Made by a program: the position numbers and the translations under genes. A stretch of 64,000 nucleotides of DNA from NCBI GenBank assembly GCA_001189075.1, contig LFCN01000006.1:17605-81604 (forward strand), in the 5' to 3' direction. This document shows positions 37,903 through 62,953 of the stretch, piece by piece. Within the stretch, counting starts at the first letter, position 1, and each line of letters begins with the position of its first letter. The DNA comes from Parcubacteria bacterium C7867-004. GTDB lineage: Bacteria > Patescibacteriota > Minisyncoccia > Phycocordibacterales > Phycocordibacteraceae. Under the pieces are notes generated by a model. That model saw only the letters and a list, made by a program, of their open reading frames with translations. It was not told where the DNA came from and searched no databases.

Positions 37903-38433
37903 TTACAGTCCCTGGCCAGTTGTGCCGCTTGCTCGCGCAACAAGCTCATCACGCAACAGTTCTGCGTCCGCTCTGGTGACTCCCGGCAGCCTGCCTTCAG
38001 CTCCTGCGCCGAAGGTACCGTATCTCGACACTGACGCGCTGGCTCCTGCCGTCTGGATATGTAGATCAGAAAGTCCGAGGATGCGTGCGAGAATTCCACG
38101 ATTAATATCCACATTCTGTATTCTCGAATACGGTATCGTCACATATTTCTTCCAAATTATTCCCGACTCTTTCCGAAACCCTTTATCGGTCAGTTCGTAA
38201 CGATAGAAGTAATAGGTGTATTTCGCCCAGATGTAGGTGAGAGCTGCAAGCACTGCAAATACCAGAACTGACCAGAGAGCGAAGCGCGGAAGATCGAAAT
38301 AATCATCAACCACAAATAGTGCTTCGAGCCACACGAACGATGACCAGATGACAATGAAAATCGCAGCGACGAGCGTGTGTAACAGCGAGCCCCAAAAGAA
38401 AAGCCAGACTGCTTTTGCATCTAATTGTTTCAT
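37903..38433 (-). CDS. bacterial PH-domain (bPH_2/YdbS-like) membrane protein
   Basis: Two N-terminal TM helices followed by YYFYRYELTDKGFRKESGIIWKKYVTIPYSRIQNVDINRGILARILGLSDLHIQTAG, a typical bPH_2 pattern. Confidence 0.6.
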   Translation of the reverse strand: MKQLDAKAVWLFFWGSLLHTLVAAIFIVIWSSFVWLEALFVVDDYFDLPRFALWSVLVFAVLAALTYIWAKYTYYFYRYELTDKGFRKESGIIWKKYVTIPYSRIQNVDINRGILARILGLSDLHIQTAGASASVSRYGTFGAGAEGRLPGVTRADAELLRDELVARASGTTGQGL

Positions 38434-38517
38434 ATCAGAAGAGTAGCATGGCTATCCTTGGAAAGGTCGAGTTGAGACAAGGGCTCAGATTCAAGAGTCT
38501 TTTGGTATAGTGAACGC

Positions 38518-39078
38518 ATGTCAGGACACAGCAAATGGTCACAGATAAAGCGGCAGAAGGGCGTCGCTGACGGCGCGAAGTCAAAGGCGTTCGGCAGATT
38601 CTCAAAGCTCATCGCTCTTGAATCAAAGAAGGCTGCCGGAAACCTGTCTTCCCCCGGTCTCGCGAACACCATCGCGCGTGCCAAGGCCATAAACATGCCC
38701 AAGGACAGCATCGACCGCGCAGTCGCCAAGGGCATCTCTAAAGATTCCGGTGAACTTATCCAAGTCGTGTACGAGTGGTACGGCCCCGGCGGCGTCGCCA
38801 TCATCATCGATGCGCTTACGGACAACACGAACCGCACAACGCAAGAGATCAAGCATTTGATAACGAAGAACGGATTTGAGTTGGGCGCACAGGGTTCGGC
38901 CGCCTGGGCGTTCAAGAAATCCGGTAGTGGTGCATTCGAGCCAAACGAGCCCTTGATGGACCTGTCCGAATCCGACGAAGAGGCGCTCGGAAAGATATTT
39001 GACCAGATAGATGAGAATGATGACATCCAGCGCGTGTATACGAACGCTCGTGGGTACGAAGATAACGAGAGCGATTAA
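38518..39078 (+). CDS. yebC: YebC/PmpR-family probable transcriptional regulator (short, 186 aa)
   Basis: MSGHSKWSQIKRQKGVADGAKSKAFGRFSKLI is canonical YebC N-terminus, with a YEWYGPGGVAIIIDALTDNTNRT block. A middle subdomain appears deleted. Confidence 0.85.
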   Translation: MSGHSKWSQIKRQKGVADGAKSKAFGRFSKLIALESKKAAGNLSSPGLANTIARAKAINMPKDSIDRAVAKGISKDSGELIQVVYEWYGPGGVAIIIDALTDNTNRTTQEIKHLITKNGFELGAQGSAAWAFKKSGSGAFEPNEPLMDLSESDEEALGKIFDQIDENDDIQRVYTNARGYEDNESD

Positions 39079-43382: not shown

Positions 43383-44732
43383 TTATACCAACAGCGTGCG
43401 AATATCCTGAATCTCCTTTGCGAGCTCCTGATCAACCAGGATCTCCCGCTTCACCTTCTCGCACGAGTGTATGACGGTAGTGTGGTCGCGACCACCAAGC
43501 TTCGAGCCTATGGTCGGATACGAGACACTGAAATCTTCACGTAGCAGGTACATGATCACCTGCCTAGGACGCACCACCTCCCTCCTGCGTGTCTTCTCAT
43601 AGATACTCTCCTCGTCTATGCCGTAGTACTCGGCAACCTTTGAGACCACATGCTTCACGGACACGGTCTTCTGTGGGCGTGCGAACGAGCGCAGCGACTG
43701 GCGCACTTCAGCAAGATCCGGCGGCACGCCCTTCACCTGGGTATGGCAGACGACGCTGTTTATGACTCCCTCAAGCTCGCGGATCGAGCCGGATATCGAG
43801 ATAGCGATGTATTCGATAACCTCATCGGACAGGTTCACGCCGTGCGCAGCGGCCTTCTTCCGCACGATAGCCATGCGGCTCTCGATATCCGGCTCTCCGA
43901 TGTCTATGGTCATGCCGCTCGCTAAGCGGCCGCGCAGACGTTCCGCGATATCAGGAATCGCTACCGGCGCCCTATCGGACGAGAAGATGATCTGCTTGTT
44001 GTTGTCGTAGAGCGCGTTAAAGAGATGGAAGAGCTCTTCCTGGGTCTTCTCCTGGCGAGAGAGGAACTGCACGTCGTCCATAATCAACAGGTCGAACTGG
44101 CGGTACTTCTCCTTGAAGCGGCTCGAGGTGCCCGCCTGGATGGCGTCGGCGAACTCCGACTTGAACTTCTCCGATGCGAGATAGAAGACTTTGCGGCTAG
44201 GGTACAGCTTCTTATACTGGTTCCCGATGGCTTGTATAAGGTGCGTCTTCCCGCGGCCGGTGTCTCCGTAGATGAAGAGTGGGTTGTACGTTATTCCAGG
44301 ACGCTTCATGGCCGTTTCTGCCGCCATATAGGCCAGCTGGTTGAAGTCCCCTATCACGAACGAGTCGAAGGTATAGCGCGGATTCAGGTTGTCGCTCTTG
44401 TTTATATAGAACTCGTCGAGCGGCATCTCGGTGGTCTGCTGCGGGATACGCTTCACCTCTTTCGGCTTGCGGCGATCGTCTTTCACGATCATGTACTCGA
44501 TATTCCGGTACTCGTAGGAGACGGAGCGGATGATCTTGAGCAGGAGCGCGTTGAATTTCTTGAGATACCAGTCCCTGAAGAACTGGCTCGGCACCCCGAC
44601 GAAGACAATGCCGTCTTCGATCTTTACGATAGAGCTGTCACGGAACCAGGTGTTGAAATTCGCCGGCGAAATGGAGAGCTCCACTTGAGTAAGGACATAT
44701 TCCCAGAGCTCGCGCGCATCAAGTCGGTTCAT
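43383..44732 (-). CDS. dnaA: chromosomal replication initiator protein DnaA
   Basis: [22 protein letters not shown] (Walker A), [10 protein letters not shown] (Walker B), and the C-terminal DNA-binding [15 protein letters not shown]. Confidence 0.95.
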
Positions 44733-46050: not shown

Positions 46051-46056
46051 AACAGT

Positions 46057-46088
46057 ACAGAAAAGGCCGCAAATGCGGCCTTTTCTGT
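46057..46088. terminator. bidirectional terminator after yidC
   Basis: acagaaaaggccgc-aaat-gcggccttttctgt. Confidence 0.85.
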
Positions 46089-46103
46089 ACTCAGTACTTT
46101 GTA

Positions 46104-47339
46104 TTAGAGATCGTACGACCAGAGGGAGCCGTCCCTCTGGTTCGTGAAGATGAGCACATCCGATTCGCGGTCAACCGTCAGTGCTACGGCGTCTATCTCC
46201 ACATCCCCTACCTGCAAAGGATCAACGATAAGGGTTGCGAGACGAGTGTCGAGATCGACCCTCCAGAGACGGTCGGTAAAGGCGTAGGCGCCCTGGTACC
46301 AGTCGTCCGGCGAAGCCTTTGATAGCGTGGTCGGAACGCCGCAGTACACTCCCCTGCCCCCTGCTTCCCATGCGCACTTATCCGCGATGGTTGCGAGCGG
46401 AAGCGGCGTTACGGTGCGGGTCGCTATGTTCATGATCTGCGTGTACAAGGTTCCCTTGTCGACGTAGCTGAACAAGACTGAGGTGCCGGTCGGATCCGCA
46501 AGCGTCGTGAGTCCCCGGAGCGGGCCGAGAAGACGAACGAACGAACCGTTCGCCCGGCTTACCAGGAACGCATACCCATCGAGCTCTTTGGACGCCTTGG
46601 TTGCAAGGACGAAATCGCCTCCCGAGAAGCTCGCGCGTAATTGTGCGAGCGCTGAGGTGAAGACGGTGGCTGTTCCGGTCCCGTCGGGCGCAGATACCGT
46701 TCCTGTTGAGCCGTTGCTTGAGGGCAAAAGTGAGAAGACGGTGCTAGTTCCCCGGACGATGATCTGGCTCAGGTTCTGTTCCAGGAAGTAGCCGTCATTC
46801 TCGCTGCCGTCGGTCGGAAGCGAATACGTATCAACATGCTCGGTGCCGTCATTAGCGCGCGTGAGGAACTGGGCGAATGCTCGCTTCCCGTCGCTGGTCC
46901 ACGCGGCTTCCTGGACTCCCGGCAGGGTCCGGTTGCTAATACGCGTAAGAAGCCGGTCGTGAACGAGGAAGGAGAACACGTTTCCGCTCTGGCGCTCTAT
47001 GTAGCGGACTTCAACTTCGGCAGGCTTTGATTCCTGGCTGCTGGTTGCGGTAGAGGTCGCGGACGAAGAAATGATCACAGGCGGGAGATAGATGGCCGCC
47101 ACACCCTTAGCAACAGGACCATCGGTTATGCGAAGCAACCGCGGAGCCACAACGACCCCTGCCCCCTGCACTGGTCCCACGTCAGTTGAATCATCTGGGG
47201 CCCGATCACCGCTTGGTGTGAATGGTGTGACATCAACGTTAAGCTTCGCACCCGGTGCGAATACGAAGAACCAGAGCGCAGCAACGAGGCCGAGGATGAC
47301 GATGACGCCCGCGATGATGATGAGTACTCGTCGGTTCAT
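46104..47339 (-). CDS. hypothetical membrane-anchored protein (411 aa)
   Basis: N-terminal TM (VLIIIAGVIVILGLVAALWFFVF) and a large extracellular domain with no recognisable catalytic motif. First gene upstream of the T4SS-like block on the same strand. Confidence 0.4.
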   Translation of the reverse strand: MNRRVLIIIAGVIVILGLVAALWFFVFAPGAKLNVDVTPFTPSGDRAPDDSTDVGPVQGAGVVVAPRLLRITDGPVAKGVAAIYLPPVIISSSATSTATSSQESKPAEVEVRYIERQSGNVFSFLVHDRLLTRISNRTLPGVQEAAWTSDGKRAFAQFLTRANDGTEHVDTYSLPTDGSENDGYFLEQNLSQIIVRGTSTVFSLLPSSNGSTGTVSAPDGTGTATVFTSALAQLRASFSGGDFVLATKASKELDGYAFLVSRANGSFVRLLGPLRGLTTLADPTGTSVLFSYVDKGTLYTQIMNIATRTVTPLPLATIADKCAWEAGGRGVYCGVPTTLSKASPDDWYQGAYAFTDRLWRVDLDTRLATLIVDPLQVGDVEIDAVALTVDRESDVLIFTNQRDGSLWSYDL

Positions 47340-47341
47340 AT

Positions 47342-48190
47342 CTAGAAGGTGCAGTTGGTCTGCTGGCTAAGTGGTTTCCTGCAGTCGCACTGGAATTCGC
47401 CCGTTGAGGCGAGTTTGTTCTTTGTCGGCCACTCCTGAAGTGATTTGTCGCATGCTGCCTGGGTGGTAAAGGGTCCTTGCTGCTGTGTTGTCGCGGTGCC
47501 TCCGCCGTCCGGCTCGAACTTGCCGCGCCAGCCGTAGGTTGCTGCAGCCGCTGGTGGGGTGCAGTTGCAGGTCGGATCGCTGAGAGCGTTGGTCGTTGAT
47601 AGCTGTACCTTGCATCCGGCCTGAGACGCGCAACAAGTCTGTTCTGCGGCCGTTACCACCTTAACTCCGTTCGGTATGGTGGTGCAGCTCCCTGCTGGAG
47701 CCTTTACGCACGCCTTGTTCTTACAGATCTTCCCGATAGCGCAGGTTACCGAACACGTCCCATCTCCCAATTCCGCTGATGGCCCGAAGTTCGACGTCGT
47801 ACTCGTATCAAGCTTGCCAAGCCCGCCTATCTTGAGGCTCAGGATGTCCGGATTGATTATGGAAAACACGACGACCGGGGAAAGAACAAGAATGAGCCCG
47901 CCGATCGCCATAGCGATGAGGTTTTTGGCCTCCTTCTTCTCGGTAAAACTGTCTCCACCCATGTACATGATGCCAGCCCGCATGATTTGAAGCACTGCGA
48001 TAACCGCGGCAAGTCCGATACAGATGCGATAGAGATTGTTAAGGAAGAGCGGAAGCGAGCTCGATTTGCCTAGACCCTCGAGAAACGGAGCGTTCTGGGT
48101 CAACGGCACAAAGCTTGTGTCGACCGCAGCGCCCGCAATCAGAGGAGTGCTAATGAAGAGCGCGAGTACCAAGAGAGGGATGTATTTCAT
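47342..48190 (-). CDS. VirB2/TrbC-like pilin fused to a cysteine-rich C-terminal domain
   Basis: Signal peptide MKYIPLLVLALFISTPLIAGAA. Two hydrophobic helices, ICIGLAAVIAVLQIMRAGIMYM and LIAMAIGGLILVLSPVVVFSII, separated by a short polar loop (pilin-like). Then ~150 aa containing >=15 Cys (CSVTCAIGKICKNKACVK...CDCRKP). Confidence 0.5.
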   Translation of the reverse strand: MKYIPLLVLALFISTPLIAGAAVDTSFVPLTQNAPFLEGLGKSSSLPLFLNNLYRICIGLAAVIAVLQIMRAGIMYMGGDSFTEKKEAKNLIAMAIGGLILVLSPVVVFSIINPDILSLKIGGLGKLDTSTTSNFGPSAELGDGTCSVTCAIGKICKNKACVKAPAGSCTTIPNGVKVVTAAEQTCCASQAGCKVQLSTTNALSDPTCNCTPPAAAATYGWRGKFEPDGGGTATTQQQGPFTTQAACDKSLQEWPTKNKLASTGEFQCDCRKPLSQQTNCTF

Positions 48191-48193
48191 AGA

Positions 48194-49192
48194 CTATAGA
48201 CCGAATATACCGAGGAATCCGCCGGTCGCACCGAACTCAACCGCGGTGCGCGTCTCCGCGTTCTGGAAATGAGACCGCTCGCTCGCTGAAAGCCTGAGCT
48301 GCGCAGTCCCCTTCCCGTTTCCGGTAGCACGTACCGTGATGTCTTTATCAGCACCGGCAGTAGAGCCATTAACCGTCCACGCAAGCGTCGGTGGAACCGC
48401 AAAGAAGTAGGCTACCGAACGGAAGGTCGCTTCGGTGTCGGGCATGGAGAACGAGGTCGAGACGACGTTATCAAAATCAGGTCCAAGCAATGGATCGTTG
48501 CGATAGATACGCACGACGGGATCGGTAGGCGAAACCGTCGTACTCGCCTCCCCCACAAGCGTACTGTCGGGACTCGTCACAGTTACGGTAATAGGTGCGT
48601 TACGGTATCGAACTGGTGCGTCAGCGGTGATGGTGGACTTCCCGATACCGGAGACGTCGGTAAGAAGCTGATCGCCGAGCCGCCAGTTGTACACCAAGCT
48701 TGAGTTCGGAAGCCGAGCACCGGGCGAAGTCCTCAGATCAGCGAGCGCAACGAGACGAACCCGTCCCTGGGACGCCACTTGCGGCATTCCCTTATAGAAC
48801 GGGTGCACGGTTGAAACAGGCTCGACGACAAGTGAGACCTCGGCAGGACGAATGACGCGCGTAATACTGTAGGTCTGTCCCGTCGGATCTTTTACAGAGG
48901 TCACTACCGTCGTCTTCTCACCGCTCGCTCCCATCTGGAATTCGGCACCGGCCGTGCCGCTCCCCTCAAACACTTTCGTGCCGTTAACGGTAATCGTTAC
49001 GGTGCTTGCGGAAAGATCGATGAGCGTACTTTGAGGGTATATCTGCACGACCTGATAGGGACGGGGATAGTATGGATTGAGCGTTACCGTAAGGGGTGCG
49101 GCCCCGCCAATATCGAGCTGAGCACGGGCTGCCCCGGGCGCCATTCCTGAAAAGAGGGCGAGAGCAAGGATGAGGCCGAAGAGCGGGCGCAT
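48194..49192 (-). CDS. hypothetical secreted protein (332 aa)
   Basis: Signal peptide MRPLFGLILALALFSGMAPGAARA. T/S/V-rich beta-rich sequence. Within the T4SS-like block. Confidence 0.4.
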   Translation of the reverse strand: MRPLFGLILALALFSGMAPGAARAQLDIGGAAPLTVTLNPYYPRPYQVVQIYPQSTLIDLSASTVTITVNGTKVFEGSGTAGAEFQMGASGEKTTVVTSVKDPTGQTYSITRVIRPAEVSLVVEPVSTVHPFYKGMPQVASQGRVRLVALADLRTSPGARLPNSSLVYNWRLGDQLLTDVSGIGKSTITADAPVRYRNAPITVTVTSPDSTLVGEASTTVSPTDPVVRIYRNDPLLGPDFDNVVSTSFSMPDTEATFRSVAYFFAVPPTLAWTVNGSTAGADKDITVRATGNGKGTAQLRLSASERSHFQNAETRTAVEFGATGGFLGIFGL

Positions 49193-49250
49193 GTAGCTAG
49201 TATATACCGCTACAGGGCATAGCCTCCATTACGACGTGGGTACTGCCCTT

Positions 49251-49784
49251 CTATCGACCCCTACCAGGGGCAATGATTTCGGTGACGCCATTCTTGTGGA
49301 GTATCTCAAGTGCTTCTTCGAACAACTTCACGATCTTTTTCTCTTTATAGTAGGCCATGAGTACGAATATGGTGTTCGCGGGCACCAACTGTACGAACGG
49401 GATTATCTCTATGGCCATCATGGTGAAAAAACGCACCCACAACCATTTTATAAGGGCTTTCTTCCACCATCCCCCGCTTATCTTCCCCATGCACCAGAAC
49501 GTGAGGATCAATCCCATGGCGACCGAGATAAAAAATGCCACTACGGTGAGTATCAGACTCAGATCGAGCGGCCAATCAAGGATGTCCTTGGTTATCGACG
49601 CCCCGAGGATAATGAACGGAAAGCTCGGACGCGGCGGCAATTTGGTAAGCAGAAGCTCGGCATCCTCGTCCTCGAATTTCTCATCCTTCGACTCGAACAG
49701 TTCTCGTATACGGCTAAACGCCCAGTCGATAAGTTCTGCTCGAGCCTCTGCGAATATTTCTTCCGGGGATCGATCGTTTTCCAC
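49251..49784 (-). CDS. hypothetical membrane protein (177 aa), lower-GC gene
   Basis: Acidic N-terminus followed by 3 predicted TM helices. Visibly AT-richer than its flanks. Confidence 0.4.
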   Translation of the reverse strand: MENDRSPEEIFAEARAELIDWAFSRIRELFESKDEKFEDEDAELLLTKLPPRPSFPFIILGASITKDILDWPLDLSLILTVVAFFISVAMGLILTFWCMGKISGGWWKKALIKWLWVRFFTMMAIEIIPFVQLVPANTIFVLMAYYKEKKIVKLFEEALEILHKNGVTEIIAPGRGR

Positions 49785-49795
49785 GGAGGTATGCG

Positions 49796-51619
49796 TTAGG
49801 TACCTGCAGCAGCGTTCCTATCCTTTTCCTGCTGGATCTTTAGGAGCTGTGATGGGTCGGAGGTGATGATCTGATCCTCGGTGTATGACGCAACAACCTT
49901 GATGGCGACGTGCTTCAATCCCGCGAAGAACAACCCCTCCCCTACCCCTGACTCAAGCAGAAGGAACTTTTCCTGATCGGTTAGATTGAAGGTTTCTTTC
50001 AGCACGTCGATGGTTGTCGGAGACTGCTTGAGGAGCAGCTGCATCGAAGAGTTCGTGAGTATTGGTCTACCATAGGGGCTCCTGAGGAAGTCTTCGACGT
50101 CCTGGGTGATAGTGGCGAGACCGAGATAGTATTTGCGGCCGCGCTTGGCGATGCTGTAGAGGAATGAGGCCGTATCCTCCGACTTCATCATCCACCACGC
50201 CTCGTCGATAACCAGGAGGCGCTGCTTGAGCTCATGTCTGACTGCGTTCCAGATGAAGTGCGTGATGATGTACATCGCTACCGGCTTCAGCTCGTCCTCC
50301 ATATCGCGCACGGAGAAGACGATGAACTGCTTATTGATGTCGACGTTGGTCGGCTGGTTGATGAAGCCTGCCCAGGTGCCGTGGGTGTACTTCGAGAGGC
50401 GCGTAACGAGCGATTCCGAGCCTTCCATGCCGGAGAGTACGTTCTCGAAGTCGGAGAGAAGCGGGGGCTCGACACCGGTAAAGTCCGCATCCCCGGTAAT
50501 ATCCTTGAGCGCATAGGTCTCAGTTATTGCACGGTCTACAATCGCATCTTCTTCAGGAGAAAGTCCTCCGAGCATGATACGGAAGAGTCCCACGAGGTTG
50601 ATGATGTTGCTCCGGAGTATGTCTGCGGGCTCCTCGTCCTCTTTGACAGGGGGAAGGTCGAACGGATTGATGTGGTTCTCGGATGAGAGAGAGATGTTAA
50701 ATGTGCGTCCGCCGGTAGCCTGCGCGAGGAACTCGTACTCGCGCTCTGGGTCGATAACGATAACGTCCGTACCGAACATGAGCGAACGGAGCACCTCGAG
50801 CTTAACCGCGTACGACTTTCCGGAACCAGACTTCGCGAATACAACGGAGTTGTAGTTCTCGAGCGAGAACCGATCGAAGAGGATGAGCGACGCGTTATGG
50901 CGATTGATGCCGTAGAGGATGCCGCGATCGCTCGTGAGATCGAAGGAGACGAACGGGAATAAGGACGACAGAGGCCCGGAATTCAGCTTGCTCGTCACTT
51001 CCAACTCATCGAGCGCGAGCGGAAGTGTGGAGCGGAAGCCTTGTTCCTGCTGGAAGAGCGCAGGCTTGGTGTACACGAGCTTCGCGTCGAGGATGCCGCG
51101 CACTTCCCCTTCGATCTTGTCGAGATCGTCTTTCGAGTTCCCGTATATCGTGAGGTACAAGCCCACCTCGAAGATGTGCTCCTCTGCTTGCTGGAGTTGG
51201 TCGCGCAGCTGCTCGAGATCGCGGTATGCCGTATCGAGCATTGGGTCACGAACGAGCCCCTTCTCTGCCCTATCGGAGATCTGGCTTTCTATCTCGGCGA
51301 CCTTCTTCTGGAAGCCACGGAGCGCCGTTCCGGTATCGACCGGATGGATGAAGATGCCGATATCGAGCACCTTATCCATGTTTATAATCGGGCTGAACCA
51401 GCTGTCTACGAGGAAGCGCGGGTATGAAATGGTGTAGAACGAGCGGGAGAACTTCTCGCCGAGCTCGAGTTCGCGAGCGCCAACCTTGAGTGCTGCCGGA
51501 GCTATAGCGTCAGCGAGCTGCAGCTCCCCTTCCGCATAGATATCCTTCGGAAGCACGGACGCCGGCCTCGGTGCCTCTCCTTCGTTCTTATTCTTTCCTA
51601 GAAAATCAAGCAGTGCCAT
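49796..51619 (-). CDS. virB4: T4SS ATPase VirB4/TrbE/PrgJ family, ATPase (C-terminal) portion
   Basis: VVFAKSGSGKSYAVKLEVL (Walker A), RLLVIDEAWWMM (Walker B, DEAW), plus a VirB4-type C-terminal block; 607 aa. Confidence 0.85.
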   Translation of the reverse strand: MALLDFLGKNKNEGEAPRPASVLPKDIYAEGELQLADAIAPAALKVGARELELGEKFSRSFYTISYPRFLVDSWFSPIINMDKVLDIGIFIHPVDTGTALRGFQKKVAEIESQISDRAEKGLVRDPMLDTAYRDLEQLRDQLQQAEEHIFEVGLYLTIYGNSKDDLDKIEGEVRGILDAKLVYTKPALFQQEQGFRSTLPLALDELEVTSKLNSGPLSSLFPFVSFDLTSDRGILYGINRHNASLILFDRFSLENYNSVVFAKSGSGKSYAVKLEVLRSLMFGTDVIVIDPEREYEFLAQATGGRTFNISLSSENHINPFDLPPVKEDEEPADILRSNIINLVGLFRIMLGGLSPEEDAIVDRAITETYALKDITGDADFTGVEPPLLSDFENVLSGMEGSESLVTRLSKYTHGTWAGFINQPTNVDINKQFIVFSVRDMEDELKPVAMYIITHFIWNAVRHELKQRLLVIDEAWWMMKSEDTASFLYSIAKRGRKYYLGLATITQDVEDFLRSPYGRPILTNSSMQLLLKQSPTTIDVLKETFNLTDQEKFLLLESGVGEGLFFAGLKHVAIKVVASYTEDQIITSDPSQLLKIQQEKDRNAAAGT

Positions 51620-51623
51620 AGAA

Positions 51624-52265
51624 TTATGCGTTGGTGAGACGGATCGGATTTTCGAGTTCGCTCAAGTTGAAGGAGCGGTATAGAAGCTCGATTATCTCTT
51701 CCGTGCCGAGCGGCACCGCACGCACGCCGCTTGAGCCGAGCCCTGATACGACGAGTGCCATTCTCTGCTCGAGCTGCACCCGATGCTCCTCGAAGGAAGC
51801 CTCAGGACCGGTGCTTCCTGATTTCTTCGCTCCGCCGCGACCGAGGAACGAGATTGCGCTCGCCACTTCCCCACCTGCGCTAGGTGCGTAGGGAACAATG
51901 ACATAGAACATCTTCGTCATGATGTCGTTCGTGTCGATGAAATTGCGGATGAACTGCTCGTATTCGCGCAGCTGGAGTTTCATGAGTTCGGTAGTCTGAG
52001 TGCCAGCTCGACTCTCGAGAAGAGCGAGGTACGGACGGATATCCGTTTTCCGAGAATGAATAACGATCTCGACGCTGAAGTCGAGTGTATTGAGGAAACT
52101 CTGGAAACCCTGCACGACTCCTTGCTGCTCGTCTTCACCCTTGAGCGCGAAGTTTATCGACGAGCACATGAGTATGCCGCGATAGCCGTCATTCTTTAGG
52201 ATGACGACGCCGTTGCGGACCTCCTTAACAGGAACGAACGATTGAGTTGTTTTAGGTGCGGGCAT
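51624..52265 (-). CDS. putative VirB4 N-terminal-domain protein (separate ORF, 4 nt upstream of the ATPase ORF)
   Basis: ~213 aa (from the internal Met). Position and size are consistent with the N-terminal domain of ~800-aa VirB4 proteins. Ends LTNA-stop, then TTCT, then the ATG of the next ORF. Confidence 0.35.
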   Translation of the reverse strand: MPAPKTTQSFVPVKEVRNGVVILKNDGYRGILMCSSINFALKGEDEQQGVVQGFQSFLNTLDFSVEIVIHSRKTDIRPYLALLESRAGTQTTELMKLQLREYEQFIRNFIDTNDIMTKMFYVIVPYAPSAGGEVASAISFLGRGGAKKSGSTGPEASFEEHRVQLEQRMALVVSGLGSSGVRAVPLGTEEIIELLYRSFNLSELENPIRLTNA

Positions 52266-52269
52266 GCGG

Positions 52270-52686
52270 TTATCGGCCGGGAGCGGGCGGGTTATCTTGG
52301 ATATCGAGCGAGCGTGCAAGATCGTGCAACCGTCCTCGCGTCATGCCGAGCTTCGCACGATCTTCGGGAACTGGAGCCGCCGGAGCCGCTACGGTCGATG
52401 CTACCGGCTTCTCTTTCTTCCAGAGGTAGAGACGGTCCGCGATGAGGTACTTGAATCCGGCCTCCATGATCTCGACGAACGGCTTGTTGTTGATCTTGTA
52501 GAACGCGAGGGCTGCGGTGAACGCCGCAACCGGTATTGCAAGGAGAATGCCGACTAGGCGCGGGAGATAGAGCACGAGTATGGCGCAGAGACCGACGCCG
52601 CCTGCGATGTAGATGAACTGCTTAAGTGTGAAAGGGCCGAATATCTTGTCTTCGACCTCGATGAACTGCGGTACCTGGTACTCCAT
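52270..52686 (-). CDS. PrgI-family (VirB3-like) small membrane protein
   Basis: MEYQVPQFIEVEDKIFGPFTLKQFIYIAGGVGLCAILVLYL followed by a second TM; size, N-terminal motif and position (immediately upstream of VirB4) match PrgI/VirB3 analogues of monoderm T4SS. Confidence 0.6.
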   Translation of the reverse strand: MEYQVPQFIEVEDKIFGPFTLKQFIYIAGGVGLCAILVLYLPRLVGILLAIPVAAFTAALAFYKINNKPFVEIMEAGFKYLIADRLYLWKKEKPVASTVAAPAAPVPEDRAKLGMTRGRLHDLARSLDIQDNPPAPGR

Positions 52687-52747
52687 TACTAGCAGTATAC
52701 CAGTCGACGGCGCGAGTGCGCCGTCGTTTTCATCTGATTAGCTGAAA

Positions 52748-53173
52748 CTAGTGGTGTCCTCCCCCGCCGTGACCGTGACCACCTCCGCCATGATCATCCT
52801 TCTTTCCGCCTCCATGTCCGCCGCCGCCGGCCATCTCTTTCCATCGCTTGAGTCCGGTCCATACGATAGAAAAGAATGCTCCAAAAAAACCTATACCTCT
52901 TTTGACCCACTTATTATCCATAAACCCCTCTCCGTGATGGCCTCCGCCAGACGTGCTCGAGTGCGAACTCCCGGTCAAGGTTGCGGCTCCATGAGCCCCG
53001 TTTGATGCTCTGTGTTCGGCTTCGCCATGTGCTGCGAGCCTCTCTCGTGCTGCAGCCGCAGCGCTTTCCGCTGCCGGATCGTGAGGCGGGACTACCGGAT
53101 CAGTCGAACCAGGAGTCGCAGGTGTCCCTTCGCTTCTTGATGCTTCGTGATTTGCTGGAGGATGTTCGGACAT
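52748..53173 (-). CDS. small Gly/His-rich membrane protein (141 aa)
   Basis: Central TM (IGFFGAFFSIVWTGL) and a C-terminus GGGGHGGGKKDDHGGGGHGHGGGGHH. Also SGGGHHGEGF upstream. Confidence 0.4.
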   Translation of the reverse strand: MSEHPPANHEASRSEGTPATPGSTDPVVPPHDPAAESAAAAARERLAAHGEAEHRASNGAHGAATLTGSSHSSTSGGGHHGEGFMDNKWVKRGIGFFGAFFSIVWTGLKRWKEMAGGGGHGGGKKDDHGGGGHGHGGGGHH

Positions 53174-53222
53174 GGATAAAGCTTATCAGCGCTCGGGCCT
53201 CAATACAAAGACGGAAATCGCA

Positions 53223-54116
53223 CTACGCGATAGGTTCGCGATACGGGTCAGAACCTGGCAACCGTGATGGCGGAGGCACCGTTGCTATCTGCGGGGGCGG
53301 GATCGGGGCTGAAAAAACAGGCGGCTGCGGCGCAGGAGGAACCTCGGTATAGGAAACCGTCTGCGGCACTGCCTCTGGCTGCATAATCGCAGGATGAGGT
53401 ACTGGAGCGGGAGGAGTTTGAGGGTGCGGAATATATACATGCACCGATGCAGCAGACTGCCAGCCGATCGGAGAGGCCGGCTGCACGGTGGAAACCGTAT
53501 GCTGAACCTGAAGAGGAACTGCAGGTGCTGAGACCGGGGCTGGGGCTATGGGTGGTGTCACTTCGGCCACGGGCGGTTCGCTTATTACTGGTATCTGTCG
53601 AGCCACTTCAGGCGCTGGCGCTGGAACAGGCATCGGTGCAGGCACAGACGAGCCTGGAAGGGTTACTGGCGAAGGAGCCGCGGCATATTCTAGTGCGGGC
53701 GGAGGCAACACAGGTGTCGATTGCTGTGGCGCAGGAGTAGCTGCGGCAACCGGAACCGTAGTGAGCGATATGGGAACACGAACGCTACCGTCAGTCATTG
53801 CGCTACCTCCACCAGTCATAATCGCGTCTCGAAGCGGCATAAACACCTCTTTATTTAGGTCGGCAACAAGTCTGGTGGCAGTTGGTGTATCGATTCCTAA
53901 GGTCTGCAGCGCGCCAATAAAATCATCAGGCTTCATGAGCCCAAGAAGCATGTCCCGGATCAATTCCGTAATCGAACCGACAGTGTCGATATGGAGACCG
54001 TAACGAGTCTGAAGACCGACCATGAAGTCGATGCCAGCACCATCCGAGAGCGTATCTTGAATAGCTTTCGGTGCCGCGTCATACGCAGCGAGCAGTTGTT
54101 CTTGAGGACGCGACAT
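53223..54116 (-). CDS. hypothetical protein with Pro/Ala/Val-rich low-complexity C-terminal two-thirds
   Basis: ~100-aa N-terminal globular part, then PVxAP-type repeats for ~200 aa. Confidence 0.4.
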   Translation of the reverse strand: MSRPQEQLLAAYDAAPKAIQDTLSDGAGIDFMVGLQTRYGLHIDTVGSITELIRDMLLGLMKPDDFIGALQTLGIDTPTATRLVADLNKEVFMPLRDAIMTGGGSAMTDGSVRVPISLTTVPVAAATPAPQQSTPVLPPPALEYAAAPSPVTLPGSSVPAPMPVPAPAPEVARQIPVISEPPVAEVTPPIAPAPVSAPAVPLQVQHTVSTVQPASPIGWQSAASVHVYIPHPQTPPAPVPHPAIMQPEAVPQTVSYTEVPPAPQPPVFSAPIPPPQIATVPPPSRLPGSDPYREPIA

Positions 54117-54134
54117 ACCGTACTGTTCAGTTAC

Positions 54135-56255
54135 CTATATTGTAATGCCTGCCCAACGTTCCTTCACTTTTGGATTCGCAGCAAGCAATGCGTCGAACTC
54201 CACTCTTTTCGGAGACGTAGCAGGAAGAGACCGTAGGTATCCAAGTACTGTTCGTAGCTCGCCAGGATTGAGTTTGTTGGGATCAATTGTCGCAAGCTGT
54301 CGACCTGACATATTCTGGTGAACTTCTGCGCGCGCAAGGATTGCCGGCTTAAGCTTGCCAATGTCTTCGTTGGACATGCCACCGATGGTTCCTGCGGCAC
54401 GCGTTCCTTCAAATCGCTTATCGCGGGCATCCCTGAGGGCGCCCTGTTGAGCGCCCGTAAGCTTGTCATTCTTGATGACAGCATCAAACTGATCGTCAGA
54501 GATATTTGCCGCGAAATTCTCATCCGAAAGGAGACCAGCGTGGTCGTTTGATTTTGCAAGCTCGGAAAGATCTTTCGCTGACCAGCGCTTAAGAGCCGTC
54601 TGCGCCGCCTTCTTCTGATCCGGAGTGGCGGCAGGGTCGTTGATCGTTGTCAGTTGTTCTTGAATCGCATCAAATCGGCCCTTTCGGAGCTGGCCCTTCT
54701 GGCCCTCATCAAGCTTGTCGCTCTTCATGAGACTTTCGAACTGCTCAGGAGTAAGATTCTGTGCCATTGAGGCGATACCTTCCTTGATTCCATGAAGCTC
54801 TTCAAGCTGTTTGGTAGAGAGTGACGCCAAGTACTGCTTACTGTCATCGCCAATTACGCCATGACCTTCCTCCTGGTCATGTGCCTCCTTCTCAAGCGTC
54901 TGCTTCTTCACCTCACCTAGGTATTCTCGCTCAAGTTCCTTTCCGGCCTTTCCTTCCTTAATGTCCTCATACAGATGCTTGGCGTCACCAAACGTTGCGT
55001 GTTCCGCTGGCTTCGCTCCGGCAGTGATTCCGGCTGCTCCGAGCACAGAACCCACGCCTGCCCTGCGGATATCGAGGTTGGCCTTCTCGAGCGGACGCAG
55101 TATGCGGTTCACGGCGACCTGCCCTGCCCTACCGCCAAAGCCGGTCTTCTGTTGCAGACGTCGGAGCGCAAACGCGCCGCCGCCGACACCGTAGTTCGCT
55201 ACTCGGGCGGCGGAACCAAACGTAACCGCGCTCGCCGTATTCATCGCGAACTTAGCACCCATTGCACCCATCTTGTTCGCAACTATAAGCGACGCCATCA
55301 TGAATCCGATGATAACGGCGAATACGAGCACGACCTGCACGTTCCCGGCAGCCGCTTGCGCACCGGCAACGCCACCCGTACCCGCGATCGCTTCACCCAG
55401 TTTTCCGCTTGAGCCCTGTGCGAGCGTCTCTGTTAGTTTAAGACTTATGAAGATAAGGAGGAGATATGCAGGAGCGAAGAACGCCTGAGAGAAGAGTTTG
55501 CTCCACCACTCGTCGGCAAGCTTCTTGAGTGACGGTATGGCCATGCCCGCGAATCCTATCGGCGAGGTAACCATAAGGAGCGAGAGCACCACGACTCGAT
55601 AGATGAACATGATTGCCCCTGCCAACAGCACCATCGCGGTTATCATGACGAATATCGCGAGGCAGATGAGCACGATTGCCGAGGCGAGGGGCTTCGTTGC
55701 GTTCACGCCGTCCCCTCCGGTCCAAATGCTGCCGATGCCGGCCCGATCGGATACCAGTCCCGAGATTCCCACGTTAACGCAGGGATCTGCGGGCGCTGAA
55801 GGGTCACACTTCTGGCCTGCCTGTTCCGCAAACACCGAAGCAAGGCCGTTCGAAACGTCGATTATGGCCTGGGTAGCAAACAAGCTGAAGTTCACGAGCA
55901 CGGCGAAGAGGATCAAGCGCGGTATCGCTTTCTTCGCGCTTATACCGCCGCCATGCCCATGCCCTCCTCCGTCAACATTAAGGATGAGCATTACGCCCAT
56001 GAATATGAATCCAAAGAGAAGGCCAATATTCGCTATGTCGCGCATCACTCCCCAGGCGACGAGCATCGCATCTGAAGTGCCGAAATAGGTTCCGAACTGG
56101 TACACGGTCCGGATTACCGCCCAGTTGAATACGAGACCTACGAGCCAGAGAATTAGATTCGCGAGACCCAGCATCGCCACCCCGAGCGGGTACAGGACAA
56201 TACCGAAGAGCCACTCCCCTCCTCCGACGACTGCGTTAATGAAACCCGATATCAT
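54135..56255 (-). CDS. VirB6/TrbL-like polytopic T4SS membrane protein with a long repeat-containing hydrophilic tail
   Basis: ~360-aa N-terminal region with >=6 TM helices and a HGHGGG loop. C-terminal ~340 aa hydrophilic with an internal ~60-aa repeat (EQFESLMKSDKLDEGQKGQLRKGRFDAI vs DQFDAVIKNDKLTGAQQGALRDARDKRFE). Confidence 0.55.
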   Translation of the reverse strand: MISGFINAVVGGGEWLFGIVLYPLGVAMLGLANLILWLVGLVFNWAVIRTVYQFGTYFGTSDAMLVAWGVMRDIANIGLLFGFIFMGVMLILNVDGGGHGHGGGISAKKAIPRLILFAVLVNFSLFATQAIIDVSNGLASVFAEQAGQKCDPSAPADPCVNVGISGLVSDRAGIGSIWTGGDGVNATKPLASAIVLICLAIFVMITAMVLLAGAIMFIYRVVVLSLLMVTSPIGFAGMAIPSLKKLADEWWSKLFSQAFFAPAYLLLIFISLKLTETLAQGSSGKLGEAIAGTGGVAGAQAAAGNVQVVLVFAVIIGFMMASLIVANKMGAMGAKFAMNTASAVTFGSAARVANYGVGGGAFALRRLQQKTGFGGRAGQVAVNRILRPLEKANLDIRRAGVGSVLGAAGITAGAKPAEHATFGDAKHLYEDIKEGKAGKELEREYLGEVKKQTLEKEAHDQEEGHGVIGDDSKQYLASLSTKQLEELHGIKEGIASMAQNLTPEQFESLMKSDKLDEGQKGQLRKGRFDAIQEQLTTINDPAATPDQKKAAQTALKRWSAKDLSELAKSNDHAGLLSDENFAANISDDQFDAVIKNDKLTGAQQGALRDARDKRFEGTRAAGTIGGMSNEDIGKLKPAILARAEVHQNMSGRQLATIDPNKLNPGELRTVLGYLRSLPATSPKRVEFDALLAANPKVKERWAGITI

Positions 56256-56258
56256 GTT

Positions 56259-57800
56259 CTATTCTTTGTCGATCGAGCACGATCGTGAAGAGGCAAGACG
56301 AGTGAGCTGCGTATAGAGCGACGACGGGTCTCCATCTCCCGTATCAACCGACTCCCGACTCACCAGCGCGAAGGCATCTGGGCTCGGGAGCACGAGTCCA
56401 TTATATTCATCGAATATGGTCGCGTAGGCCGCGGTCTGGTCTCCAGGAGCATTCTTAGCTGTCTGCATCTTCGCATTGATTGCATCTAGTGCCGAGAGAG
56501 AATTGGCTCCTGCCACGAGATTCTCGCCTGCTCTGGAGATGATCTGGTCAGGAGTAAGAGATTCGCTACCGAGGGTTAATGCCGTGCCTGGGCAGCGGCT
56601 CCGTACTCCTTCCGCCGCATCGCGGAGTCTGGTCCAGCCTGCATTGAAATCAGAGATATTGCGGCGCTGCTCGGTGAGTGTTTCTTCGAAACGTTCGCCG
56701 AGACTCTTCGTGACGTCATTCGTCTGGGTTGGGCTAGTTGCCTGGTCAAGCGGGGACACTCCTCCTCCAGAAGAAGGGCGTGACGAGCCTGAGAGGCCTC
56801 CTCCCCCATCCGAGCCAAGCAACTGCCCCATCAGCTGGTTCATGAGCGCGCCGATAATCTCGTTCAACTCATCCGCGGTAACAATCTTGTCGATGTTGGA
56901 ACCGAGAGTCTTATTGAGCTGCTCATGTATAACGCTACCTGGTGTCTTTACGGCATAGTCATAACAATCGTCTTGTTGGGCGAGCGACACGGTCTTCGTC
57001 TCGCTCAGGTTGCCGGTGGCGTTGCCGTTCTCGTCGACACTTAATCCCGAACCGATAGTTCGGAGCTCTACGTTGCTCGTGGTTGTCGTCGGAGCGGTCT
57101 TGCAGTCCCCGCGCCACTGCATAAAGCCACGGTTCCAGGAGAATTCCTGAAGACGATTTCCGGTCGCTTCCTCAACCTCGCCGGTGATGAAACGATTGAG
57201 GGCCATCTCGGCAGCATAGGGATTATTTTGCGGGTTCAGCGTTGATGAGATCCACGCGTTCCATCCACCTTTGGTGAACTCCCCCTGGAGGAATGCGCGG
57301 TCGTCCTCGCTCACCTGATTCAAGGTGTACGGGTACTTTGTGTAGAACGATTCCGGGCTGGTTGAGAGGTAGTACGCGAGACGCGCACCGTCGAGGATTC
57401 TGTCCTGGAAAGGTGTCGTTGCTATATCTTGATTCGAAAGCTCAGTGAAGAATCGCGACACTACCGCATCCCCCACTCCTCGCAGGTTATGTTTCAGATC
57501 GGTAACGAATGCAGGCGAGCCCTGAAAGCCGCTGTTAATCCAGTTCACGAGACTCTTCACGAGCGATTTACGCGCAAGCTCGATAACCTGCCACGCAAGA
57601 GTGTCGAGCACGAATTCCTTCGTCTTGCCGGCAGCGTCAGCGAAAGCCGACACGGTGTTCTGTACGAGATTCGTGACGTCGATGACGGGCAATCCGGCGT
57701 TTGCCTTCTGCGGGAGGGAGACCGTACCGACTGAGATAAGGATAGAGAGGCCGAGGACCGAAGCTATGATGCGCTGCGAGAATGTTGGTCCGCCGTCCAT
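56259..57800 (-). CDS. hypothetical secreted protein (513 aa)
   Basis: Signal peptide ending ...PQKANA. Gly/Ser-rich linker (GSDGGGGLSGSSRPSSGGG). No recognisable motif. Confidence 0.4.
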   Translation of the reverse strand: MDGGPTFSQRIIASVLGLSILISVGTVSLPQKANAGLPVIDVTNLVQNTVSAFADAAGKTKEFVLDTLAWQVIELARKSLVKSLVNWINSGFQGSPAFVTDLKHNLRGVGDAVVSRFFTELSNQDIATTPFQDRILDGARLAYYLSTSPESFYTKYPYTLNQVSEDDRAFLQGEFTKGGWNAWISSTLNPQNNPYAAEMALNRFITGEVEEATGNRLQEFSWNRGFMQWRGDCKTAPTTTTSNVELRTIGSGLSVDENGNATGNLSETKTVSLAQQDDCYDYAVKTPGSVIHEQLNKTLGSNIDKIVTADELNEIIGALMNQLMGQLLGSDGGGGLSGSSRPSSGGGVSPLDQATSPTQTNDVTKSLGERFEETLTEQRRNISDFNAGWTRLRDAAEGVRSRCPGTALTLGSESLTPDQIISRAGENLVAGANSLSALDAINAKMQTAKNAPGDQTAAYATIFDEYNGLVLPSPDAFALVSRESVDTGDGDPSSLYTQLTRLASSRSCSIDKE

Positions 57801-57801
57801 A

Positions 57802-58830
57802 TTATTTATTTGCCGCAGCCGCGTCGCGGGCGGTCTTTATGATGTAGTACCCTTCCACTCCTTCAAGCGGTGTGACCTGTAGAGCCTCGAATACGCCGCT
57901 CAAGCCTGCGAACGAAGCGACCACTCGAGCACCGTACGTTTCGTAGAGCGCGATACCCATGAGTGCCCGTATCGGATCTTCGTTCATGGTGCTCATGTCT
58001 TCGCTCATCTCGCCCATGTGGATGAGCGCGTTCACGATGGCGAGGTGCGACTGCGCTATCTCGTCGGGCACCGGGATCTTGATGAGCGCGTTCGCGATGT
58101 TCTCGTATGCCTTCGCTACGTCCTTGAGCTTCTTGAGCGACTCGTTGTCGCCTTTTATCGCACGTCCGAAGTACACCAGCTCGTTCTGATCGGAAGGAAC
58201 GGTGTTCTCCGCAAACGCCTGTTCGGCCGCAATCGCGTACGCGCGTGCTGCAGATGCGCCCGTCTCACCTGACCGTTTAACGTCCTTGGCGCTATAAGTG
58301 TCTGGTGCGGCGCTGGTTTCCGAAAGATTCTGAACGCCGGCCTCGACGAATGAGACAATCTCGTCGGTTGTAGGAGGAGTCGATCCCCGATTCGTCATGT
58401 ACTGCTTGAAGAGCGCCTGCGCGAAGCGGTCTGTGAGCGAGTTCGGTGCAGCGGCGGTTCCGGGTATTGAGTCGATGTCAGTTTCCTCAGGAGCCGGTGC
58501 TACTTCCACCTTCGGCTGTATGAGTCCTTGCGCTACCGCGTCGCCGTCGAGCACGCCCTTCTTAAACGACTCAGCCTCGTTCGGATCAGTTCCGTAGAGT
58601 GCCTCCTGCCAATCGAGGAGCCCATCTTGGTCCGTATCCTTCGAGGCGTATTCGCGCAAAAGCTCCTGCGAGTTCTCCGCATTCGCCACCAGAATGTTCC
58701 CGAAGAACGGAACAGGACCCGAAAGCACGTACGAACCCGCCATCATCACGACAGCAATAAACGAGGCAGCTATGATGCGGATGGTCGGTGCCGAATGAGC
58801 CATAATCCTTAGCAAAATAATAGCACGCAC
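57802..58830 (-). CDS. hypothetical membrane-anchored protein (342 aa)
   Basis: N-terminal TM (IIAASFIAVVMMAGSYVL); predicted extracytoplasmic remainder. First gene of the accessory block on the minus strand. Confidence 0.4.
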   Translation of the reverse strand: MRAIILLRIMAHSAPTIRIIAASFIAVVMMAGSYVLSGPVPFFGNILVANAENSQELLREYASKDTDQDGLLDWQEALYGTDPNEAESFKKGVLDGDAVAQGLIQPKVEVAPAPEETDIDSIPGTAAAPNSLTDRFAQALFKQYMTNRGSTPPTTDEIVSFVEAGVQNLSETSAAPDTYSAKDVKRSGETGASAARAYAIAAEQAFAENTVPSDQNELVYFGRAIKGDNESLKKLKDVAKAYENIANALIKIPVPDEIAQSHLAIVNALIHMGEMSEDMSTMNEDPIRALMGIALYETYGARVVASFAGLSGVFEALQVTPLEGVEGYYIIKTARDAAAANK

Positions 58831-61861: not shown

Positions 61862-62953
61862 GTGCTCAATGCGAGCCGACATGCATACTGGATTCCTGGC
61901 GCTCTAATCGCCGCAAGCCTCCTTCTGGGGATAGGAATCACCCTCACCCCGACTGCTGCGGGAGCCTTCTGGCCATTTTCAATAACGAACGCATCGGAAT
62001 CCTCCCCGATGCTCCACGACAGCAGCATCGACCTGCTTGAAGCCGCTACGAACTCCGATCCGAACCCTGCCAAGGGTAGCGGCGACATACTTACGACCGG
62101 AGGATCGGCCCTTATCGCGTATAGCGGCCCGGGCGGGACCATCGTGAACATCGACAAGAGCGTTACGGGAGGCCGCATCTCGAGCTACACCGTCCGTGAA
62201 GGCGATTCCCTCTCCGATATCGCAGACATGTTTGACGTTTCGGTAAACACCATACTCTGGGCGAACAATCTGACCGCCAAGAGTGCCATCGCTCCAGGAA
62301 GCACTCTTATCATCCTGCCGGTCTCCGGTCTTCGCCACACCATCACGTCAGGCGAGACGCTCGCGAGCCTCGCGAAGGATTACGGATCGGATGCGGACGA
62401 GATCGCCTCGTATAACGGTCTCGAGGCGGGAAGCGGCCTTACCAAGGGACAGAGCATCATCATTCCTGGAGGCGAGATAAAGGCACCGGCTAAGACTGTC
62501 GCGAAGGCAGCCGCTAAGGCGAAGACGGTTGCGAAGGCCAAGATTCGTACGGGTGGTGCCATGGGCAGCATCCTTCCTACGGGAGACACGAGCAATGCGG
62601 CGTCGAGCGGATTCGCGAATCCGGTACCGGCAGGTCGCCTTTCTCAGGGCATCCATGGGTGGAACGGTGTCGACCTCGCTGCCCCGAATGGCAGCCCTAT
62701 CTACGCAGCTTCGGGAGGTACCGTTATTATCTCTCGCATAGGCGGATGGAACGGCGGATACGGCAACTACGTCGTTATCGACCATGGCAATAACGTGCAG
62801 ACGCTGTACTCGCACATGAGCACCGACCTGGTCTCTGTCGGACAGTCGGTAGCTCGCGGCGAGCAGATAGGCTCGGTCGGCAAGACCGGTGAAGCAACCG
62901 GCTTCCATCTCCACTTCGAGGTGCGAGGCGCGAAGAATCCATTCGGGAACTAA
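61862..62953 (+). CDS. LysM-domain-containing M23-family peptidoglycan metalloendopeptidase
   Basis: Two LysM-like repeats (YTVREGDSLSDIADMF ... HTITSGETLASLAKDY) and an M23 domain (HGWNGVDLAA ... VVIDHGNNVQTLYSHM ... GFHLHFEV). Confidence 0.85.
   Translation: MLNASRHAYWIPGALIAASLLLGIGITLTPTAAGAFWPFSITNASESSPMLHDSSIDLLEAATNSDPNPAKGSGDILTTGGSALIAYSGPGGTIVNIDKSVTGGRISSYTVREGDSLSDIADMFDVSVNTILWANNLTAKSAIAPGSTLIILPVSGLRHTITSGETLASLAKDYGSDADEIASYNGLEAGSGLTKGQSIIIPGGEIKAPAKTVAKAAAKAKTVAKAKIRTGGAMGSILPTGDTSNAASSGFANPVPAGRLSQGIHGWNGVDLAAPNGSPIYAASGGTVIISRIGGWNGGYGNYVVIDHGNNVQTLYSHMSTDLVSVGQSVARGEQIGSVGKTGEATGFHLHFEVRGAKNPFGN

Follow-up and report, generated by a model that had tools for sequence, protein, structure and literature searches.

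A probable non-conjugative type IV secretion system encoded next to dnaA in Parcubacteria bacterium C7867-004

INTRODUCTION

Nearly all ultra-small Patescibacteria (Candidate Phyla Radiation, CPR) carry a type IV secretion system (T4SS) cluster beside the replication origin. Of all T4SSs, the patescibacterial one was the first to be demonstrated as essential to the bacterium that bears it, and it is thought to be central to the host-bound life of these ultra-small, biosynthetically poor organisms; the leading ideas on its function are effector export and the import of DNA or nucleotides (PMC11665869). Here we describe such a cluster in a 64-kb stretch of the genome of Parcubacteria bacterium C7867-004 (GCA_001189075.1). 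This whole stretch is called the window, and all coordinates refer to it.

The closest described systems are those covered by a survey of 3,035 Patescibacteria genomes (Quinonero-Coronel et al. 2025, Microb Genom, PMC12102498). There, the patescibacterial VirB4 proteins form a monophyletic clade nested in the MPF_FATA class, and TrsD, PrgI/VirB3, VirB6 and VirB2-like pilins are widespread close to virB4, with almost no relaxases. In the Paceibacteria the T4SS adjoins dnaA, dnaN, rnpA, rpmH and ksgA, and Table S1 has a row for GCA_001189075.1, Parcubacteria bacterium C7867-004, that reads 'Presence of VirB4: Yes'. The experimental reference is the homologous locus SEML1_0004-0019 of Candidatus Southlakia epibionticum ML1, which is essential for epibiotic growth by transposon sequencing (Tn-seq), and in which SEML1_0010-0008 (VirB3-TrsD-VirB4) scored essential (Wang et al. 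2023, Cell, PMC10633639).

RESULTS AND DISCUSSION

The cluster has the Paceibacteria arrangement of the Patescibacteria T4SS

The cluster consists of 12 minus-strand open reading frames (ORFs) that fill positions 46104-58830 with intergenic gaps of 1-61 nt (Table 1). The public gene calls, taken from an assembly with identical proteins, contain the same 12 genes, including the 141-aa and 177-aa ORFs. A preliminary description of the window, made from the sequence alone, had listed eleven co-directional minus-strand genes at 47342-58830; all of them are present at these positions, but a twelfth gene (g411) had been missed. This gene lies between the pilin gene and yidC on the same strand, and it was syntenic in 63 of the 80 related loci (L001-L080), which come from species-representative Paceibacteria genomes recovered with VirB4 and served as the comparison set throughout. 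On the left the cluster is flanked by dnaN-dnaA and then the divergent rpmH-rnpA-yidC genes, and on the right by rsmA and uvrD.

With an MPF_FATA-derived VirB4, a separate TrsD, PrgI/VirB3, VirB6, a VirB2-like pilin, no relaxase nearby and ksgA (rsmA) as a neighbour, the locus has the Paceibacteria arrangement of the Patescibacteria-clade T4SS, and nothing essential differs from the system described in the survey (PMC12102498). The system is already known, and the window adds nothing categorical, because the type of locus, its position at the origin and the VirB4 of this genome have all been published. What the present analysis adds to the parts of the survey consulted are the folds of the companion proteins, the TrbJ-like N-terminus and the family size of g513, the variable pilin ectodomain and a comparison of evolutionary rates with DnaA. 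Three of these increments, namely the contrast in conservation between core and surface, the g513 family and the pilin ectodomain, offer targets for structural and genetic work. What novelty remains is to be sought in the companion families without a name, the ectodomain of the pilin and a possible TrbJ-like component.

We consider it likely that the cluster as a whole is a non-conjugative chromosomal T4SS, and this is the explanation that we favour. We are highly confident that it specifies an envelope machine at the interface with the host, which is inherited vertically, is powered by VirB4 and operates with neither a relaxase nor a linked coupling protein. The preliminary description had also read the locus as a chromosomal, monoderm-type T4SS core that is probably not conjugative, in agreement with the tests reported below and with the published descriptions of the class (PMC10633639, PMC12102498).

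The synteny comparison with Saccharibacteria that had been proposed at that stage revealed a further likeness: in S. epibionticum the order is also VirB6 ... PrgI - TrsD-like - VirB4 with dnaA/dnaN adjacent, exported Ig-like proteins are encoded downstream of virB4, VirB2-like pilins are present, and the locus has no relaxase or type IV coupling protein (T4CP). Of the two, only S. epibionticum has six short pilins in tandem, a pair of large cell-wall hydrolases beside virB4 and an NTF2-like (VirB8-like) protein, whereas in the window a single pilin carries a long Cys-rich extension, the cluster includes no hydrolase and no NTF2-like protein was detected. Likeness to the trs region of the staphylococcal plasmid pGO1, of the MPF_FATA subclass with TrsD, lies in the contiguous TrsC(VirB3)-TrsD-TrsE(VirB4) genes, the TrbL-family protein TrsL and a small CagC/VirB2-like protein. 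However, pGO1 is a mobile plasmid with a VirD4-like T4CP, relaxases, a CHAP hydrolase and topoisomerase III, none of which is found in the window locus.

VirB4, TrsD and PrgI form a Gram-positive-type energy module

As judged from its sequence, the inner-membrane energy module is of Gram-positive (MPF_FATA, pGO1-like) ancestry and comprises PrgI/VirB3, TrsD and a VirB4 with intact Walker motifs. The proposed VirB4 ATPase passed the curated cut-off of the CD1110-type model: the 607-aa ORF scored 366.6 bits with NF045971 (cut-off, 325) over model positions 183-733 of 752. It also carries a P-loop_TraG domain (PF19044, E 1.7e-24). The Walker A sequence AKSGSGKS occupies residues 262-269 (window 50813-50836) and the Walker B sequence LLVIDE residues 468-473 (window 50201-50218), and Walker B was retained in 79/79 VirB4 orthologues. 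The protein is 100% identical to the database entry of Parcubacteria bacterium C7867-004 labelled 'Type IV secretory pathway VirB4 component-like protein', and it shares 73-94% identity with hundreds of Paceibacteria VirB4 proteins.

The ORF upstream of virB4 matched VirB4 models in their N-terminal parts only (CD1110 positions 2-115; Mbov_0397 positions 102-233). All of its 37 orthologues analyzed matched VirB4 N-terminal regions, and 34/37 matched the TrsD/TraD family NF041427 (best E 1.3e-10); the public gene call is a 213-aa protein with a TraC-like PF26593 match. Its start is likely the ATG at 52265, giving 213 aa instead of the 231-aa ORF, and with this start it does not overlap PrgI. 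These two ORFs had been described as a VirB4 split in two. There are indeed two ORFs, but they represent a conserved TrsD + VirB4 gene pair and not a disruption. A TrsD-type ORF (~210 aa) distinct from virB4 was found in 76/80 related loci, 120 VirB4 homologue clusters among the matches listed are 590-615 aa long, and the TrsD stop is 4 nt ahead of the virB4 ATG, with the stop-ttct-ATG junction intact. Hence, the TrsD + VirB4 pair is natural, and a frameshift pseudogene, which was considered as the origin of the split, was rejected on the separation and the lengths of the ORFs. With hhalign, the match of the window TrsD to pGO1 TrsD was weak (E 0.007) and that to full-length PrgJ was negative; the templates in these and the other hhalign comparisons were single sequences, which have low power, so that such negatives are weak.

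The third member of the module, the 138-aa PrgI/VirB3-like protein, had been recognized in the preliminary description and passed the PF12666 cut-off (42.6 bits; cut-off, 27). It was detected in 75/80 loci.

The locus is chromosomal and vertically inherited

In the 80 genomes the recurrent gene order was uvrD-rsmA-g342-g513-VirB6-Pro-rich-PrgI-TrsD-VirB4-(small transmembrane ORF)-g332-pilin-g411 / yidC-rnpA-rpmH / dnaA-dnaN, and this order persists to ~50% DnaA identity among Paceibacteria. In a Kaiserbacteria-type subset (L018-L045) the genes from PrgI through g411 were kept beside yidC/dnaA, and the ORFs upstream of PrgI had no similarity to g342, g513, the VirB6-like protein or other window genes, which suggests two separable modules or extreme divergence.

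The conservation of the components was uneven. VirB4 identity exceeded DnaA identity in 57/59 loci, a comparison with some bias in that the loci were ranked by VirB4 similarity. In the deepest group the median identity was 74.5% for VirB4, 52.9% for DnaA, 37.9% for DnaN, 49.5% for TrsD and 47.1% for PrgI, and the exposed or membrane proteins (VirB6-like, g513, g342, g332 and g411) were at 26-28%. VirB4 thus appears to be under strong purifying selection, and the combination of a conserved engine with fast-diverging surfaces fits an indispensable cytoplasmic engine with host-adapted surfaces.

All window ORFs of at least 186 aa were scanned except for a 189-aa (17591-18160) and a 198-aa (38430-39026) ORF, and among the scanned ORFs no match to a relaxase, a T4CP, VirB11 or an integrase/recombinase was obtained, which bears out the absence of VirD4, VirB11, relaxase and integrase that had been reported for the window. 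Every window ORF of at least 400 aa belongs to another family or to the cluster, with no VirD4/TcpA match, and the window's sole T2SSE ATPase, of 562 aa, is a PilB that carries an MshEN domain. Likewise, no cluster protein had a Pfam or NCBIfam match to VirB7, VirB9, VirB10 or VirB11, consistent with the lack of outer-membrane parts (VirB7/9/10) noted earlier. Neither flanking direct (att-like) repeats nor an adjacent tRNA were found around the cluster in the 64 kb, and the GC content was even over the locus. The synteny in 80 genomes, the uniform GC content, the lack of flanking repeats or a tRNA, and the lack of relaxase, T4CP, VirB11 or integrase matches among the scanned ORFs indicate vertical, chromosomal inheritance.

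By ancestry the VirB4 family is conjugative (CD1110/MPF_FATA), and T4CP genes are often unlinked from virB4 according to the survey (PMC12102498), so the cluster might serve conjugation with a T4CP and a relaxase encoded elsewhere, or be a decayed integrative conjugative element. This is highly improbable, since the cluster has a fixed position between core genes over deep divergence, no integrase match, att repeat or tRNA target accompanies it, VirB4 is more constrained than DnaA, which argues against decay, and only 109 relaxases are recorded in the 3,035 Patescibacteria genomes of the survey (PMC12102498). An integrative conjugative element, or a remnant of one, was rejected on the fixed position across species, the lack of flanking repeats or a tRNA and the constraint on VirB4.

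The VirB6-like protein and the pilin are identified through their orthologues

The 706-aa protein that had been called VirB6 had no match in Pfam, NCBIfam or PDB sequence searches, and in this respect the call was not supported by the window protein itself, but it was recovered through the syntenic orthologues. Matches to TrbL/VirB6 were obtained with 9/41 of these, and to TrbL_4 with one; three orthologues scored above the gathering thresholds (TrbL in L008, 31.5 bits, and in L047, 29.8 bits, with a cut-off of 25.9; TrbL_4 in L029, 29.0 bits, with a cut-off of 27). In addition, hhalign aligned residues 214-272 of the window protein with the conserved Trp-containing helix (the R...SP...WW region) of pGO1 TrsL (E 1.8e-4) and R388 TrwI (E 0.0047). 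Residues 14-332 of the protein contain ~6-8 transmembrane (TM) segments, and the C-terminal part that follows, ~370 aa long, is hydrophilic and helical. Within this part, residues 471-610 contain an internal repeat of ~60 aa (L..QF..L.K.DKL...Q.G.LR..R), with an alignment score of 73 (shuffled sequences: mean 22, maximum 41). With this TM region and repeat tail it is an 'extended VirB6' as the term is used in PMC12857230.

The VirB2/TrbC-like pilin proposed in the preliminary description presented a similar case: the window protein fell just short of the PF18895 cut-off (24.8 bits; cut-off, 26.6; TrbC, E 0.002), but 26/28 orthologues matched T4SS_pilin PF18895 (best E 2.4e-10) and 11/28 matched TrbC/VirB2. 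The conserved part is limited to the signal peptide and the two-TM hairpin, ~40% of the query. The window pilin has 15 Cys residues. Orthologue lengths ranged from 140 to 474 aa, and the Cys-rich ectodomain, of ~60 to 340 aa, was hypervariable between species and barely alignable save for a recurring CC...CCG motif.

Such an ectodomain, together with the Ig-like and Ca-repeat surface proteins of the cluster, could indicate that the locus is mainly an attachment organelle, in which VirB4, the pilus-biogenesis ATPase of known T4SSs, merely assembles a pilin-based fibre or surface layer and nothing is translocated. We regard this as improbable: a type IV pilus system (PilB, PilM) encoded in the same window already serves adhesion in the phylum, and the strongly conserved VirB6 channel protein speaks for translocation.

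Proposed mode of action and direction of transport

In the non-conjugative T4SS that we favour, VirB4 (with TrsD) would dock onto a PrgI/VirB6 membrane platform and drive the extraction and assembly of the pilin, giving rise to a surface filament or a short conduit. The variable ectodomains and the companion proteins would touch the host cell, and macromolecules would be moved across the site of contact, with neither a dedicated coupling protein nor a relaxase. The pilin-like protein is probably built into a surface structure and macromolecules are probably moved. The homologous locus of S. epibionticum is essential, and by this analogy the cluster is probably needed for host-dependent growth.

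The direction of transport may be inward. As an import machine, comparable to Helicobacter pylori ComB or archaeal Ced, the system would take up host DNA, nucleotides or other macromolecules and offset missing biosynthesis. The lack of a T4CP or relaxase match in the 64-kb window and the reduced genome speak for this, published hypotheses favour it (PMC11665869, PMC12102498), and in S. epibionticum ComEC is dispensable and the T4SS essential. We nevertheless hold it to be a tentative option, as the match to archaeal CedB was restricted to the P-loop region (NF041017, 35 bits; cut-off, 700), no ComB-like VirB7/9/10 were found, and import has never been demonstrated for a monoderm T4SS; moreover, it is a sub-case of the favoured explanation, with the same machine. 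The opposite direction is equally tentative. An exporter would inject the host bacterium with proteins that manipulate or damage it, and exporters without a T4CP are known, i.e., Bordetella Ptl and Brucella VirB (PMC12102498). Effector delivery has been speculated on in the literature, and the variable proteins exposed at the surface would fit contact with the host. On the other hand, no candidate effectors or recognizable secretion signals were identified here, and there is no T4CP for substrate recruitment.

Several points weigh against the explanation of the cluster as a non-conjugative T4SS at the host interface. No VirB8-like component (by sequence or profile) and no VirB1-like component were found inside the cluster, and a promoter and terminator scan of the cluster was at chance level, which leaves the spacing of the genes as the ground for co-transcription. 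A T4CP or relaxase could be encoded elsewhere in the ~0.78-Mb genome, and many distant T4CP homologues were found in the 2025 survey (PMC12102498). The VirB6 and pilin identities of the window proteins themselves are taken from their orthologues. A VirB2-type filament may not accommodate an ectodomain of ~170 aa on each pilin subunit, and no pili have been observed in the lineage. Finally, T4SS essentiality is known from one Saccharibacterium only, and there are no experiments on a Paceibacteria T4SS.

Lineage-specific envelope proteins surround the core

The core is surrounded by five lineage-specific envelope proteins (Table 1). One is secreted and has three Ig domains, one is TM-anchored and beta-rich, one is helical and TrbJ-like, one is anchored and carries a Ca-repeat, and one is small and polytopic. 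PDB profile searches with orthologue alignments of the VirB6-like protein, g513, g342, g332 and g411 gave nothing significant.

Table 1. Coordinates and properties of the cluster genes and of the repeat at the end of the cluster
Feature	Coordinates	Strand	Properties
Inverted repeat	46054..46091	none	perfect 18-nt, AGTACAGAAAAGGCCGCA / TGCGGCCTTTTCTGTACT, 100% complementary, 2-nt loop; between convergent yidC and g411
g411, 411 aa	46104..47339	-	one N-terminal TM anchor and beta-rich ectodomain; hydrophobic segment residues 1-33; last cluster gene
VirB2/TrbC-like T4SS pilin	47342..48190	-	signal peptide, two-TM hairpin ~46-119, Cys-rich C-terminal ectodomain
g332	48194..49192	-	secreted, three tandem Ig/FN3-like beta-sandwich domains, short hydrophobic C-terminal tail
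g177	49251..49784	-	small polytopic membrane protein, 2-3 hydrophobic segments; public gene calls
VirB4-family ATPase, 607 aa	49796..51619	-	MPF_FATA / CD1110 type, without N-terminal domain; NF045971
TrsD-family protein, 213 aa from ATG at 52265	51624..52265	-	homologous to VirB4 N-terminal domain
PrgI/VirB3-like two-TM protein, 138 aa	52270..52686	-	PF12666; TM hairpin residues 20-65
Gly/His-rich ORF, 141 aa	52748..53173	-	public gene call; specific to this genome
Pro-rich protein, 297 aa	53223..54116	-	small N-terminal globular part, C-terminal region 19% Pro
VirB6/TrbL-like polytopic membrane protein, extended, 706 aa	54135..56255	-	syntenic orthologues
g513	56259..57800	-	signal-anchored, mostly helical, TrbJ/VirB5-like N-terminal motif; directly upstream of VirB6-like gene
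g342, 333 aa from ATG 58803	57802..58803	-	N-terminal TM anchor, one TSP3-type Ca-binding repeat, helical ectodomain; first cluster gene

The most widely syntenic companion protein was g332, for which the structure search returned generic Ig/FN3 matches only and no T4SS-specific relative. For g411 the best match in the PDB profile search was the beta-propeller protein TolB, which was not significant (E ~0.08-0.15), and no Pfam match was obtained with any of 41 orthologues. In the case of g177 the position was kept and the sequence was not: a same-strand ORF with 2-3 TM segments followed virB4 in 55/72 loci, and tblastn matches were limited to 4 loci. The g342 protein, detected in 34/80 loci, scored under the cut-off with PF18884 (E 3.3e-4); its match in the PDB profile search (E 0.005) was confined to the Ca-repeat of a biofilm surface protein, and the low-power hhalign comparisons with PrgL, PrgD and TrwG were negative. 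The Pro-rich protein has no TM segment, no signal peptide and no Pfam or NCBIfam family match, and it was detected in 24/80 loci at a coverage of ~0.34.

Whether the Gly/His-rich 141-aa ORF is a T4SS component is uncertain. It had no tblastn match in the 80 loci, is not in the nearest relatives, and in L001 PrgI starts 7 nt after the Pro-rich gene, with no such ORF in between. A GGGHGHGGG-type Gly/His motif was observed both in the tail of this ORF and in the VirB6-like protein, where it lies in an extracytoplasmic loop (residues ~95-103); the shared motif may bind metal.

The g513 family is very large and unnamed, with thousands of cluster representatives, and its likeness to TrbJ is confined to ~50 N-terminal residues; comparisons with R388 TrwJ and pGO1 TrsF, again by single-sequence hhalign of low power, were negative. 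The TrbJ-like g513 gene directly upstream of the VirB6-like gene recalls the trbJ-trbL and virB5-virB6 pairs of diderm P-type systems (R388 Trw, Ti VirB/Trb), with which the locus also shares a VirB2-type pilin and a TrbL/VirB6-type channel protein. In contrast to those systems, no VirB7/9/10, VirB8, VirB11, VirB1 or VirD4 homologues were found, and the VirB4 is of the monoderm type. One could envisage a chimera, in which a Gram-positive-type PrgI-TrsD-VirB4 module drives a diderm-type pilus module. In this module g513 would be the tip protein, a divergent VirB5/TrbJ, alongside a VirB6 of the TrbL type and a VirB2-type pilin whose subunits each bear a fast-evolving, Cys-rich host-recognition domain, and the pilus would act as a conduit that draws host material. 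We consider this proposal unlikely; if true, it would mean a conjugative-type pilus in a monoderm, with g513, g332 and g411 as unnamed core structural parts.

A LysM + M23 peptidase gene (61862-62953, plus strand) lies on the other strand, two genes upstream and 3 kb away from the cluster. It occupied the same position in the three closest relatives with flanking sequence long enough to cover this region. Its product could stand in for a VirB1-type cell-wall hydrolase.

Transcription and orientation of the cluster

The 12 genes are probably co-transcribed, as their spacing suggests, toward a hairpin shared with yidC. The inverted repeat at 46054..46091 resembles a bidirectional terminator and likely marks the 3' end of the T4SS transcription unit. 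A second, GC-rich hairpin (52705-52726; 9-bp stem with 8 GC pairs) was observed in the 61 nt that separate the Gly/His-rich ORF from prgI; its T-run is antisense to the operon, on the plus strand.

The T4SS operon (46104-58830) reads toward dnaA (43383-44732), and it would be head-on to replication if oriC lies beside dnaA; a search for DnaA boxes found no cluster above chance. A head-on orientation, if so, would be unusual for an essential, supposedly highly expressed cluster.

Other genes in the window

The other window genes are housekeeping genes, for tRNA synthetases, PolA, RuvAB, SHMT, ThyA and a penicillin-binding protein, and type IV pilus genes. The latter, at 24829-26612 (minus strand) and 34942-36630 (plus strand), encode PilM, a weak PilN-like ORF and the PilB ATPase with its MshEN domain; in Saccharibacteria the T4SS and the type IV pilus are both essential. 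Among the tRNA synthetases, the 1129-aa isoleucyl-tRNA synthetase (6234-9623, minus strand) carries a complete His_Phos_1 domain (residues 505-671) inserted in its catalytic tRNA-synt_1 domain.

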